The position numbers and the translations under genes were made by a program. From an uncultured Clostridia bacterium (GTDB taxonomy: Bacteria > Bacillota > Clostridia > TANB77 > CAG-508), in the NCBI GenBank assembly GCA_963558395.1, contig CAUWGE010000001.1:5148-69147 (forward strand): a stretch of DNA of 64,000 bases, given 5' to 3'. Of this stretch, positions 12,122 to 33,182 are shown one piece after another; position 1 is the first letter of the stretch; every line of letters begins with the position of its first letter. Below the pieces are notes generated by a model. It did no database searches. It had not been told where the DNA came from and saw nothing but the letters and a program-made list of their open reading frames with translations.

Positions 12122-12274
12122 AGAACAAAAGAGGCATGATTAATATATTTTGACATTTCAAGTACGTTTTCATGCCTCGTCTTTGTTCGCCCGCCAAATT
12201 TTATGAAATAAAATTTGTGTGGAATGTTTAGCGAAGCTTATTTTATAATAGGAAAGTTCTCCAAACTTTCCTAT
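12122..12274. ncRNA. unclassified structured intergenic repeat, copy A (three hairpins)
   Basis: Homologous to 23238-23374. The long hairpin pairs 12122-12139 with 12170-12189; hairpin 2 is 12195-12217; hairpin 3 is 12248-12274. Stems are kept by compensatory changes between the two copies. Confidence 0.5.
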
Positions 12275-12278
12275 TATA

Positions 12279-12329
12279 TAAAAAAATACATACTCATATT
12301 AAACATTTTGTCTAATAATGAGTATGTAT
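12279..12329 (-). terminator. rho-independent terminator of the 167-aa gene
   Basis: The 12-bp stem atacatactcat/atgagtatgtat (12286-12297 / 12318-12329) is followed on the minus strand by a T-run (forward A-run 12279-12285). Confidence 0.7.
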
Positions 12330-12346: not shown

Positions 12347-12850
12347 TTATGCTTCTTCTATATATTTTCTAAGCAAATCTGTTTCCATTATTGCTATTTT
12401 ACTTTCAACACTTTCTAATTCATATAATAATTTTCTATCGTTTTCAAGTTTTTTTTCTAATAATTTAAATATATTTATATGATTATCTAGTTCTTCTTTA
12501 TATTCTGAATCATTTACTATTTTATTAAATTTTATTGTATAATCTTCATTTTCAAATTGTCTATTTTTTATAATTTTCCAGAAACTTCTTTTCTCTCTTT
12601 CTTTATTTTTTTCTTGCATTGTAATTTTATATGCCCACTTCATTTCTAGCTTTTTTATTTTTTGTCCCACTTTGCTATATGTATCTATTAAACAATTTAC
12701 TTCCTGAGATTCTCCCATAGCCTTTAAAAAATTTTCTATCTCTTCTTTCCTTTTTAAAAGTTTCCTATATTGCTCGTCATTTATTAGGTCTTCTTCTACA
12801 AACCTCTCTATGTTTTCAAAATCTTCCATTTCAAATTGTGACATAAGCAT
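12347..12850 (-). CDS. hypothetical coiled-coil protein (167 aa)
   Basis: ORF with its own terminator, divergent from the XRE regulator. K/E-rich, no recognisable motif. Confidence 0.5.
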   Translation of the reverse strand: MLMSQFEMEDFENIERFVEEDLINDEQYRKLLKRKEEIENFLKAMGESQEVNCLIDTYSKVGQKIKKLEMKWAYKITMQEKNKEREKRSFWKIIKNRQFENEDYTIKFNKIVNDSEYKEELDNHINIFKLLEKKLENDRKLLYELESVESKIAIMETDLLRKYIEEA

Positions 12851-14217: not shown

Positions 14218-15465
14218 TTATAAATTTCTTCCGCATTGCATACAAAAACTTGCATCTTTACTATTTTCTTTTCCACAGTTTGGGCAAATTTTCATATTAT
14301 TTTCTTGTGTATTTATTCCCATTGTTATTTCATTATTGTTTGGCGCTGTATATGTATTTACACTTTGATTTTCTGTTGGCACTGTATATGCATTTACATT
14401 TTGATTTTCTGTTGGTGCTGTATATGCATTTACATTTTGATTTTCTGCTGGTGCTGTATATGCATTTACATTTGGTTCTACATAAGTATTAATATTTTGA
14501 TTAATCCCCTGATGACCATTTCCAACATTTCCTGCCACTCCTCTTTCTATTTTCATCTGCTCATAGAATGACAAACTTGCAAAAATTATATATGGTGTTA
14601 ATATTGCTACTCCTATATTAAAAACAATAGAAGTTAGAATGAATAAACTTGCAAAGCCTATTATAACTGTTGCTAAATATATTAATAAGAACCATCCTAT
14701 GAAAGAAAGCATTAAACAGAAATATCTTCCTCTATTTCCTTTCATTAGATTTTCACTCATCTCTACAATTTCTTTTGGAGTCATATCTTCATTATCAACA
14801 GCAATGTAATATGCAAGCACATAAAGCAGTGATTTTACCATAAGCCAAATACTCATTCCTATATATAGTGCTACAAATAATATTAATAATACCATTACAC
14901 CTATTGAAAGTCCACTTAATAATGCTATATTTCCTGCTGCTTTTCCTAATTCTTTATTATACTCATATAAATAGTCATCACTATAATAATCATCATAGTC
15001 ATATTTATAATTATCATAATAATCGTCATATAAAGAAGAATCATATTTATATGATGTATTTGCATCTATACTGTTTAAAAACACTGAACTTGTTACTCCA
15101 TATGCTGCAAGTACTACTATAAATATTATACTTCCTACTATTGATATAACAATAGGAACTATACATTTTAATAGTATTCTTCCCAGAATTCCCCAGCTAC
15201 GTCCAAAATTTTTAAATCCAACTTTTAAAAAGTCAAAATAACTAACTTTATCACCATTTCTTAAATGATAGTATGTATATGCTAATCCATAGATAATTGC
15301 CGGAAATGCTACTGTTTCTGCTATTGACAATAGTCCAAATGTAAATGCTCCTAATAATCCTATAATAAATGTAATTGCCGCATAAATCAAAGAAACTGAT
15401 ATAGCCATTTTCCAATTTCCATTCAAATGCTCTCTTGCATCTTTTCTAAAATCACTTGCTACCAT
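14218..15465 (-). CDS. DUF975-family integral membrane protein with C-terminal 12-aa repeats and a zinc ribbon
   Basis: The N-terminus (DFRKDAREHLNGNWKMAI) and multi-TM body are typical of DUF975. The C-terminus has NVNAYTAPxENQ repeats and CPNCG...CMQCG. Confidence 0.7.
   Translation of the reverse strand: MVASDFRKDAREHLNGNWKMAISVSLIYAAITFIIGLLGAFTFGLLSIAETVAFPAIIYGLAYTYYHLRNGDKVSYFDFLKVGFKNFGRSWGILGRILLKCIVPIVISIVGSIIFIVVLAAYGVTSSVFLNSIDANTSYKYDSSLYDDYYDNYKYDYDDYYSDDYLYEYNKELGKAAGNIALLSGLSIGVMVLLILFVALYIGMSIWLMVKSLLYVLAYYIAVDNEDMTPKEIVEMSENLMKGNRGRYFCLMLSFIGWFLLIYLATVIIGFASLFILTSIVFNIGVAILTPYIIFASLSFYEQMKIERGVAGNVGNGHQGINQNINTYVEPNVNAYTAPAENQNVNAYTAPTENQNVNAYTVPTENQSVNTYTAPNNNEITMGINTQENNMKICPNCGKENSKDASFCMQCGRNL
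14345..14475. repeat. 36-bp tandem repeat (~3.6 copies) inside the DUF975 gene
   Basis: Successive units gctgtatatg(t/c)atttaca(c/t)tttgattttctg(t/c)tgg(c/t) are visible at 14345, 14381, 14417 and 14453. Confidence 0.85.
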
Positions 15466-32264: not shown

Positions 32265-33098
32265 ATGTCTAATGAAGAATATTATATAATTGAAAATGAA
32301 ATAACTGATACTACCAAAAAAAAAGAATATTGGAATGCTGGTATTGGTTTAAATAAAGTTGATAGTTTAGAGCCTTCTAAATATTTATTAGACTTATCTG
32401 AAAAAAATATTAATGGAGAATTAAAATATTACGAAATAGAAAATTTATTAAAAACATATTATGAAACACAAAATTCTAACAATATTAGCATTCAAAAAGA
32501 AAAAGAATGTGATTTAGTATCTTTAAGAATAGCACAGCTTTTGGAAGACAAAAGTTTCGGTTTTAGTCCTATTACTTTACAGAATATTCATAAATACCTA
32601 TTTAAAGATATTTATGATTTTGCAGGTAACTATAGAAATTATAATATTACCAAAAAAGAGGACATCCTTAATGGAGATACTGTTATGTATGTAAATTATC
32701 AAGATATCGAAAATTATTTTGATTATGATTTTAAAGAAGAAAAAGAATTTGATTATTCAAAACTAAATAATGATGAATTAATAAAGCATATTGCAAAATT
32801 TACTTCAAGTATTTGGCAGGTACATCCTTTTGGAGAAGGCAATACTAGAACTACGGCAGTATTTATTGAAAAGTATCTAAACAATATGGGATTTAGTGTT
32901 AATAATGATATGTTTAAAGATAAAAGCTTATATTTTAGAAATGCATTAGTTAGAAGTAATTATGGAAATATTCCAAAGGGAATTTATCCTACATTTAATT
33001 ATTTAGTAATGTTTTTGGAAAATTTATTACAAGGAAAAAACAATGAATTAAAAAATAGTGATTTATATATTAAAGAATTGTTTAAAAATGATAATTAG
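32265..33098 (+). CDS. Fic/DOC-family protein
   Basis: Fic active-site loop HPFGEGNTRTTAVF. GGAGG SD before the ATG at 32265. Extended -10 (tgttataat) at about 32213-32221. Confidence 0.85.
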   Translation: MSNEEYYIIENEITDTTKKKEYWNAGIGLNKVDSLEPSKYLLDLSEKNINGELKYYEIENLLKTYYETQNSNNISIQKEKECDLVSLRIAQLLEDKSFGFSPITLQNIHKYLFKDIYDFAGNYRNYNITKKEDILNGDTVMYVNYQDIENYFDYDFKEEKEFDYSKLNNDELIKHIAKFTSSIWQVHPFGEGNTRTTAVFIEKYLNNMGFSVNNDMFKDKSLYFRNALVRSNYGNIPKGIYPTFNYLVMFLENLLQGKNNELKNSDLYIKELFKNDN

Positions 33099-33146
33099 CT
33101 TTATATTAGGAAAAATCAAATTTCCTATGCAAGTAATAATAAAGAG

Positions 33147-33170
33147 GAGGGGCTACCAGCGTAGCCCCTC
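33147..33170. terminator. GC-rich bidirectional terminator hairpin between Fic and the GC-rich ORF
   Basis: gaggggctac-cagc-gtagcccctc, a perfect 10-bp GC-rich stem between convergent genes. Confidence 0.7.
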
Positions 33171-33182
33171 TCCCTATTTGGT

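Follow-up and report, generated by a model that had tools for sequence, protein, structure and literature searches.

The 64-kb stretch of DNA analysed here (the window) carries two copies, A and B, of a structured non-coding element. Every gene neighbouring either copy lies on the minus strand. Copy A is flanked by the terminator of a 167-aa gene and by the start of a polysaccharide deacetylase (pdaA-like) gene, and copy B by the dapB terminator and the dinB promoter. The original prediction described two homologous regions, and pairwise alignment bore this out over the full length of both copies. A covariance model made from the family scored copy A at 141.6 bits (E 1e-28) and copy B at 115 bits (E 6e-23). 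Copy A was additionally matched by an nhmmer profile across positions 1-153 of 153 (E 3e-34) and is 91% identical to copies in the MAG CAUWFE. A covariance model scan of the 64-kb window gave no further credible element beyond copies A and B. Features and their coordinates are listed in Table 1.

The left limits first proposed for the two units (12122 and 23238) were retained. The right limits (12274 and 23374) were extended by approximately 9 nt, through ...CCTATTATATAAAA. Both copies had been said to start at the terminator of the upstream gene. The abutment is real, but in window coordinates it involves the right end, that of hairpin 3, and 'start' holds only when the locus is read in the direction of the genes. 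At copy A, the terminator hairpin of the 167-aa gene (12287-12329) is followed by a minus-strand T-tract (12286-12280) that merges with the A-rich end of the element. At copy B, the A-run of the element (23374-23382) adjoins the dapB terminator, and the C-terminal ORF end of dapB is at 23419. The dinB promoter lies beyond the left end of copy B, which is thus placed between an upstream terminator and a downstream promoter. Copy B is partly decayed: it has an extra A at its left end, a C in the stem of hairpin 1 has become T, and the outer stem of hairpin 3 has been lost into the A-run. It is fixed in the window's species, with almost no variation among seven independent assemblies. Two subfamilies occur in the window's genome, with one copy of each (A-type and B-type). 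Elsewhere in the window, a hairpin-3-like palindrome that is a possible extreme remnant adjoins a bidirectional terminator between convergent genes.

Table 1. Features of copies A and B and of their surroundings in the window.
Feature	Coordinates	Strand	Evidence
Copy A, full-length, A-type subfamily, AGAACAAAAG ... CCTATTATATAAAA	12122..12283	+	covariance model, nhmmer
Hairpin 1 of copy A: invariant base GAACAAA/TTTGTTC, internal loop A vs GTC	12123..12188	+	RNAfold, family pair counts
Hairpin 1 of copy A: upper stem GAGGCATGA/TCATGCCTC, variable apical part ~30 nt	12123..12188	+	
Hairpin 2 of copy A: CCGCCAAATTTTAT / ATAAAATTTG-T-GTGG, bulged T, conserved G-T wobble	12191..12222	+	RNAfold, family pairs
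GCGAAGC mini-hairpin, optional, between hairpins 2 and 3, A-type only	12231..12237	+	
Hairpin 3 of copy A: TTATAATAGGAAAGTT / AACTTTCCTATTATA, stem reaching the right end of the element	12244..12278	+	RNAfold, family pairs
Intrinsic terminator of the 167-aa gene	12280..12329	-	sequence; minus-strand hairpin -21.6 kcal/mol
ORF of the 167-aa gene	12347-12850	-	
Copy B, B-type subfamily, partly decayed	23238..23384	+	covariance model, family alignment
dapB intrinsic (bidirectional) terminator, adjoining the A-run of copy B	23384..23418	-	sequence; minus-strand hairpin -19.9 kcal/mol
dinB promoter TTGACA-17-TATAAT, outside the element beyond its left end	23171..23199	-	12/12 consensus match
Possible extreme remnant, hairpin-3-like palindrome ATTAGGAAAAATCAAATTTCCTAT	33098..33130	+	low confidence; covariance model only 9.6 bits

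Further copies were sought with a seed pattern comprising the two conserved linkers, GTCTTTGTTCG N15-40 TTGTGTGNAATG, in an exact scan of one genome per species. This gave 66 loci, distributed over 26 species-level MAGs that each contributed up to nine seed hits. The host MAGs are labelled as uncultured Clostridium, Clostridia or Clostridiaceae and come from gut and cecum samples. An HMM built from the seed copies was then used with nhmmer on 8-kb pieces fetched around the 66 loci and recovered 95 copies. Up to 17 copies were found per MAG, counting the fetched pieces alone. Outside tandem arrays the density is approximately one further copy per 30 kb, equal to that of the window, and by extrapolation a genome would hold several tens to about a hundred copies. 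Mean identity between copies was 82% within a MAG and 61% between MAGs, and for 35 of 53 copies the nearest relative was in the same MAG. The subfamilies are genome-specific.

The element is 145-216 nt long, typically approximately 150 nt, and has no conserved ORF. Its left end is sharp: conservation starts at AGAACAAAAG, and the DNA further left is unrelated between copies. The right end comprises CCTATWAYAT and then an A-run (about six A's). Terminal inverted repeats (TIR) are absent, the left AGAACAAAAG and the right CCTATWAYATAAAA not being inverted copies of each other, and each end of the element pairs with an internal segment. No target-site duplication (TSD) was found; the longest k-mer shared between flanks was 2.22, versus 2.24 ± 0.17 in permuted pairs. 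Complementarity between the two flanks was likewise not in excess of permuted controls.

Three hairpins with conserved linkers had been predicted in both copies, and all were found, including the one-base deletion in hairpin 2 that is offset on both arms. The linkers are conserved as described but are not single-stranded: the NNN of TTCGNNNGCC pairs with the GTGN of TTGTGTGNAATG, which lengthens hairpin 2. Fold statistics were calculated for 66 distinct full-length copies, 36 pairs, and 500 shuffles. Across the family the structure of the three hairpins is conserved and their sequence is not. Standard pairs were formed in 97.0% of cells, compared with 86.4% after shuffling, and double-sided changes were present at 18 of the 36 pairs. 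The covariation score was 0.263 against 0.082 in the shuffled alignments. None of the 500 shuffles reached this value. As a control, partners were slid by 1-3 columns, and pairing fell to 42-55%. The three hairpins are maintained through compensatory substitutions.

Individual pairs illustrate this turnover. In hairpin 1, columns 11-63 are occupied by CG25/AU24/GC9/UA5; in hairpin 2, columns 80-112 are occupied by GC29/CG22/UA12; and in hairpin 3, seven of the ten outer pairs have double changes. The hairpin 2 pair 82-110 is G-U in 62 of 66 copies; the paired linkers that lengthen this hairpin also carry the bulged T. The element is invariant at the base of hairpin 1 (GAACAAA/TTTGTTC with the A vs GTC internal loop), at TTCG, at the base of hairpin 2, and at AATG. 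It varies in the apical ~30 nt of hairpin 1, in the loop of hairpin 2, and in that of hairpin 3 (5 to ~60 nt). The GCGAAGC-type mini-hairpin is present in approximately 27 of the 66 copies, with the stem variants GGC..GCC, GCC..GGC, and GT..GC. Hairpin 3 was considered as an independent REP-like unit and rejected, with approximately four to six solo copies against approximately 90 within elements.

The genome is AT-rich (28% GC), intergenic hairpins are common, and the likeness between copies could in principle be due to chance or to ordinary look-alike terminators. This explanation is refuted by E-values of 1e-23 to 1e-36 from the covariance model and nhmmer, and by the recurrence of about 95 further copies with the same boundaries in 26 genomes.

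The element did not correspond to a described family. At the Rfam 15 gathering threshold, tRNA alone was matched in the whole window, and at the 66 loci the element matched no family. Permissive scans of both copies (to E = 10) gave chance matches only, with E above 0.1; the statement in the original prediction that no known Rfam family was recognised is thus borne out. BLASTN of copy A against phage and plasmid collections returned nothing, and the family pattern gave 0 hits in viral contigs. The core sequences and similar elements were also looked for in the literature, and no description was found. No recurrent ORF that might serve as a candidate transposase or reverse transcriptase (RT) was found within 4 kb or less of the copies. 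The top clusters among the neighbours were housekeeping genes (PBP, SRP54, Mur ligase, Ddl, sigma factor, and similar).

RNAfold gave the plus strand the lower MFE in 53 of 66 copies (mean -50.5 vs -47.2 kcal/mol), and consensus pairs were canonical in 97% of cases on the plus strand and 91% on the minus strand. This gap is mostly due to one conserved G-U in hairpin 2 and to a register artefact in hairpin 3. RNAalifold had also indicated a conserved G-U in hairpin 3, which was rejected as a one-column register artefact; the real conserved wobble is in hairpin 2 only. After correction, one-sided changes in hairpin 2 comprised 7-9 U-G against 1 C-A. Hairpins 1 and 3 are symmetric, and hairpin 2 alone is strand-asymmetric. 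A weak preference for plus-strand RNA had been read from a T-G pair in the upper stem of copy B. The pair is present, but it is a private C-to-T change of a decayed copy whose relatives have GCGGGC, and it carries little strand information; the preference itself holds through the conserved G-U and one-sided changes of hairpin 2, with hairpins 1 and 3 neutral. On the minus strand, hairpin 1 could carry a conserved G-U of its own. The mini-hairpin, on the plus strand, has T-G in the stem of two of its variants; GCGAAGC with its GNA loop is a classic, very stable DNA mini-hairpin. This modest evidence makes the plus strand probably the folded one, by about two to one, with either RNA or single-stranded DNA as the folded molecule.

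The flanks of the element are strongly asymmetric. A hairpin of -8 kcal/mol or stronger lies directly past the A-run in 86% of right flanks (n = 66 distinct; mean -14.1 kcal/mol); such a hairpin is present in 16% of left flanks (n = 77; mean -4.3 kcal/mol). The flanking hairpins all differ in sequence and are not part of the repeated unit. On the gene strand they consist of a stem-loop and then a T-run, at the end of which the element begins, and they are thus intrinsic terminators. A plus-strand T-run accompanies many of them as well. In 64 of 73 cases, the gene beyond hairpin 3 is encoded on the opposite strand and points its 3' end toward the element. Orientations are split 40:2 in co-directional contexts, and there were 16 convergent and 7 divergent contexts. 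Left-hand genes that are directed into the element end in a stop codon 0-23 nt from AGAAC; at such loci the element is placed between the gene and a shared bidirectional terminator.

Terminators of several kinds are adjoined in this way. Terminators of tRNA operons precede the element at loci L053 and L004, and T-box leader terminators precede it twice, at L040 (pheS; T-box score 98.9 bits) and L041 (ileS operon; 69.5 bits, E 5e-15). The target rule is the same for the terminators of protein genes, tRNA operons, and T-box attenuators. The T-box cases further indicate that harmlessness of the site does not decide where the element is placed and that transcription of the gene strand can pass through it. 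Selection for harmless sites could account for part of the terminator adjacency but leaves the exact abutment, the orientation, and the T-box cases unexplained. An account of orientation by replication strand was also considered. Skew and gene direction are confounded, but at loci with reversed GC skew the element in most cases still faces the converging terminator, so that orientation, in the few informative loci, follows the terminator and not replication. The replication-strand account was rejected on the evidence of these few loci.

The consistent position of the element downstream of a gene's terminator, and co-oriented with it, would also fit a cis-acting minus-strand module: a back-up terminator, a REP/BIME-like 3'-end protector, or an attenuator, perhaps domesticated after spread. 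On the minus strand hairpin 1 forms a GC stem followed by TTTTGTTCT, and copies are found between T-box terminators and aaRS genes and, in two species, upstream of pdaA. However, the element lies past the T-tract, where most transcripts have already ended. The loop of hairpin 1 is approximately 30 nt, which is untypical of intrinsic terminators, and a terminator scan did not call this hairpin. At the T-box loci, where the element is tolerated, the essential pheS and ileS must be transcribed through it, which makes efficient termination improbable. The conserved G-T of hairpin 2 becomes an A-C mismatch on the minus strand. The downstream genes are unrelated, which also bears out the earlier view that a shared cis-regulatory leader is unlikely. 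A cis-acting module is accordingly considered unlikely.

Several features point to mobility. Head-to-tail arrays of two or three copies, in which CCTATTAT is joined directly to AGAACAAAAG, occur at loci L010, L011, L012, L030, L047, L050, L060, and L065. Approximately 25-30 of the 85 left flanks finish with residual sequence from the hairpin 3 3' arm of another copy. Read on the gene strand, the hairpin 1 end of the element (the GC stem with its following tract) resembles a terminator, and new copies are found head-to-tail past it. In two copies (L013 and L060) the tail AGAACAA(A/T) replaces the A-run right before the terminator. Copies are truncated at either end (approximately 20 5'-truncated and 15 3'-truncated), and this ratio gives no clear 5'-truncation asymmetry of the kind that would mark target-primed insertion. 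One orthologous site is filled at L031 and empty at L055; this is a single pair, from species approximately 25% diverged, and the filled copy is truncated. Downstream of dapB, copies are present both in the window and at L032 in opposite orientations, each facing a converging terminator; they are independent insertions in two species. Other observations speak against recent activity in the window's species. An empty-site pattern for locus A gave 0 hits in metagenome contigs, a result that is uninformative if the species is absent there. No presence/absence polymorphism within the species was seen, copy B being present in 7 of 7 assemblies.

The copy number, tandem arrays, truncations, filled and empty site, genome-specific subfamilies, and 86% terminator adjacency in fixed orientation together support a mobile or repeat element. 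We consider it probable that the family is a selfish, non-autonomous repeat of about 145-180 nt, that it homes to intrinsic terminators, and that it spreads within the genomes of a clade of low-GC uncultured gut Clostridia. The original prediction had offered two readings, a small-RNA family or a terminator-targeting miniature mobile or repeat element, and the second is now well supported while the first is weakened.

Under the small-RNA reading, the copies would be genes for trans-acting RNAs, transcribed from the plus strand antisense to their neighbours, with a functional or protein-binding core and a 3' end at the flanking, often bidirectional, terminator. Compensatory pairing together with invariant unpaired nucleotides is equally expected of a functional RNA, and the strong covariation in three helices and the invariant junction nucleotides are in its favour, as are the T-runs on the plus strand at many flanking terminators and the mild preference for plus-strand folding (53/66 by MFE; hairpin 2 G-U; 7-9 UG vs 1 CA). 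No conserved promoter was found, however: left flanks are unrelated up to position -1, and promoter scans were at shuffle level. The terminator would have to be borrowed from the neighbouring gene, and copies also lie within operons and 5' leaders. Small-RNA genes do not typically show tens of copies per genome, truncations, tandem arrays whose ends overlap, or subfamilies specific to a genome. This reading is judged to be rather improbable.

Within the mobile reading, an RNA-copy (SINE-like) route was considered, in which the A-rich 3' end of a plus-strand RNA would anneal to the T-tract and be extended by an RT encoded elsewhere. It would account for the merging of the A-rich end with T-tracts and for the AGAACAA(A/T) tails at L013 and L060, which look like read-through from a tandem donor. 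Many 5'-truncated remnants have the exact 3' junction, folding on the plus strand is mildly preferred, and orientation tracks transcription over GC skew in the few informative loci. Against this, 3'-truncated copies (approximately 15) are nearly as common as 5'-truncated ones (approximately 20), no RT gene lies near the copies and no promoter was found, and the stable GCGAAGC DNA hairpin fits a single-stranded DNA intermediate equally well. The SINE-like route is therefore regarded as a doubtful one.

Small interspersed repeats are known in many bacteria, and the element was compared with several classes. It shares with REP/BIME (REPIN) sequences a high copy number of extragenic palindromic repeats near gene 3' ends, non-autonomy, and lineage-specific subfamilies. 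REP/BIME sequences are considered to move as folded single strands, with RAYT transposases acting in trans. The element differs from them in having three distinct hairpins in fixed order instead of a 20-40 nt palindrome or inverted pair, in lacking a GTAG-type 5' motif, in forming head-to-tail and not alternating arrays, and in its exact abutment to terminators.

PATEs of the IS200/IS605 group, which move through a single-stranded DNA intermediate, likewise have no TIR or TSD, hairpins at both ends, and strand-specific insertion by an AT-rich motif. In the present family one flank is always a T-run, except at tandem junctions, where it is GTTCT. PATEs carry similar subterminal hairpins at their left and right ends, both bound by one TnpA. 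In the element, by contrast, hairpin 1 (GAGGCATGA...) has no sequence relationship to hairpin 3 (ATAGGAAAG...), the hairpins extend to the termini, and the target tracks a neighbouring hairpin and not only a tetra- or pentanucleotide. No IS605-orfB or omega-RNA match was found in Rfam.

MITE-like repeats are 100-200 nt, intergenic, foldable, and non-coding, with tens to hundreds of copies (PMC10969869, PMC3049150). RUP, BOX, and SPRITE of S. pneumoniae, Correia elements of Neisseria, and bcr1 of the B. cereus group resemble the element in size, copy number, and foldability; they differ from it in that the element has no TIR and no TSD and shows strict orientation and terminator adjacency. Judged as a classical MITE, the element is short, non-coding, multi-copy, and dispersed but lacks both TIR and TSD. 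MITEPpu9/ssr9 of ISPpu9 (IS110 family) is a structured-RNA module without TIR or TSD that occurs in tandem beside palindromes and is mobilised in trans via a circle (PMC12288879). It provides a precedent for a small, structured, TIR-less module that is moved in trans and tandemly duplicated. In contrast to MITEPpu9, no IS110-type transposase was found near any copy of the element, the target is a generic terminator in place of a specific REP sequence, and no common core dinucleotide is evident at the two junctions.

Class IIC group II introns insert after terminators and recognise a DNA stem-loop and a few base pairs, as set out in PMC12584367 with reference to Robart et al. 2007. The element resembles these introns in its position a few nucleotides past a stem-loop and T-run, in its fixed orientation, in the recognition of structure over sequence, and in tandem pile-up. 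It is unlike them in its size (approximately 150 nt), its three simple hairpins without ribozyme domains I-VI or the RT ORF that such introns usually have, the absence of an Rfam intron match, and ends that do not conform to GUGYG...AY; in addition, the strand that seemingly folds (plus) opposes the sense strand of the terminator. By analogy, the targeting logic appears closest to that of class IIC introns. The family is new and belongs among the bacterial small interspersed repeats.

For the terminator-homing repeat that we favour, the following mechanism is proposed. A trans-acting enzyme encoded elsewhere would recognise the folded single strand of the element. The likely recognition core comprises two stem bases, that of hairpin 1 (invariant, with the A/GTC loop) and that of hairpin 2 (with the bulge and the G-T). 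The intermediate may be RNA (SINE-like), or else single-stranded DNA or a circle (HUH- or IS110-like). The enzyme would set the element 6-9 nt past the stem-loop and T-run, and the A-rich end may be joined at the T-tract via short A/T pairing. Hairpin 1 could act as a terminator mimic that seeds arrays, with the next insertion made at the same stem distance as from real terminators. Any effects on the host are probably incidental. Between convergent genes the element forms the 3' UTR of the left-hand gene, and in the T-box cases it is part of the 5' leader.

A stronger version, that the family represents a new class of bacterial mobile element (150 nt, gene-free, ribozyme-free, SINE-like, and homing to intrinsic terminators), is held only as a tentative possibility. 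The A-rich 3' end would then pair with the T-tract, for example where a terminating polymerase exposes the non-template strand. The element would be copied or ligated in by an enzyme, either host-encoded or encoded at a distance, for which the three hairpins would serve as the handle. To our knowledge, neither the mobilising enzyme nor the target rule is understood for most bacterial small interspersed repeats, and we know of no system other than the larger class IIC group II introns to which a clean terminator rule, a conserved fold, and the lack of TIR and TSD have so far been linked.

In practical terms, the family will mislead the prediction of sRNAs and riboswitches in these genomes, as well as their assembly as MAGs, and the covariance model can be used as a ready-made Rfam-style model. 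The family is a tractable starting point for work on a mobility mechanism that may be new, in gut Clostridia that are abundant but uncultured.

Both genes flanking copy B of the element, dapB and dinB, are broken, each carrying a frameshift. The dapB gene is split into two pieces, and the identical split was called in seven independent assemblies of the same species (L070-L076), which were derived from different samples and built with different assemblers. The dapB frameshift is thus a genuine feature of the species rather than a sequencing error. The dinB reading runs MDRIIMHIDVNNAFLSWTAVEMLKKRK* and then continues as GSKLDIRT... in another frame. Owing to this shift, the called dinB ORF (313 aa) is without the catalytic N-terminus. 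The length of dinB was identical across all seven assemblies.

GC content was 26-30% over positions 1-64000 of the window. Plus-strand GC skew was strongly negative throughout (-0.18 to -0.27) and nearly all genes were carried on the minus strand; the entire window thus lies on a single replichore arm whose leading strand is the minus strand. The ORF containing the tandem repeats encodes a DUF975/zinc-ribbon protein (per the calls on locus L067), and its length is strain-variable: 415 vs 383 aa (L067, L068).

Features of the window and of related loci (L-numbers; JAGALX is a MAG).
Feature	Position	Strand	Remarks
dinB, frameshifted	21956-23153	minus	+1 frameshift past the first 27 codons
dapB, split gene	23419-24166	minus	1-nt frameshift
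DapB_N, 91 aa	23891-24166	minus	N-terminal piece of frameshifted dapB
DapB_C, 153 aa	23419-23880	minus	C-terminal piece of frameshifted dapB
Tandem 36-nt repeats, at least 3 units, 85-86% identical	14328-14471		within ORF 14218-15465 (minus)
Hairpin-3-like palindrome, then GC-rich bidirectional terminator	33098-33175		between convergent genes
Expanded hairpin 3 loop	L011:2385-2812; L027; L054 (MAG CAKPRA); JAGALX loci
T-box leader	L040:5165-5433		full element copy between leader and pheS
T-box leader	L041:6514-6746		full element copy between leader and small ORF + ileS

The palindrome between convergent genes could be all that survives of a third element copy in the window. In some subfamilies the loop of hairpin 3, the right-end hairpin of the element, was approximately 30-60 nt longer, giving elements of up to 216 nt. 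A skipping-rope RNA (RF02924, 60.5 bits), unrelated to the element, was recorded at L045:7553-7643 in a related MAG locus.

The loop expansions mark where the element tolerates extra sequence, and are a candidate site for an ORF-bearing parent. The two T-box loci, where a full copy separates the leader from an aminoacyl-tRNA synthetase gene, are natural tests of the effect of the element on read-through.
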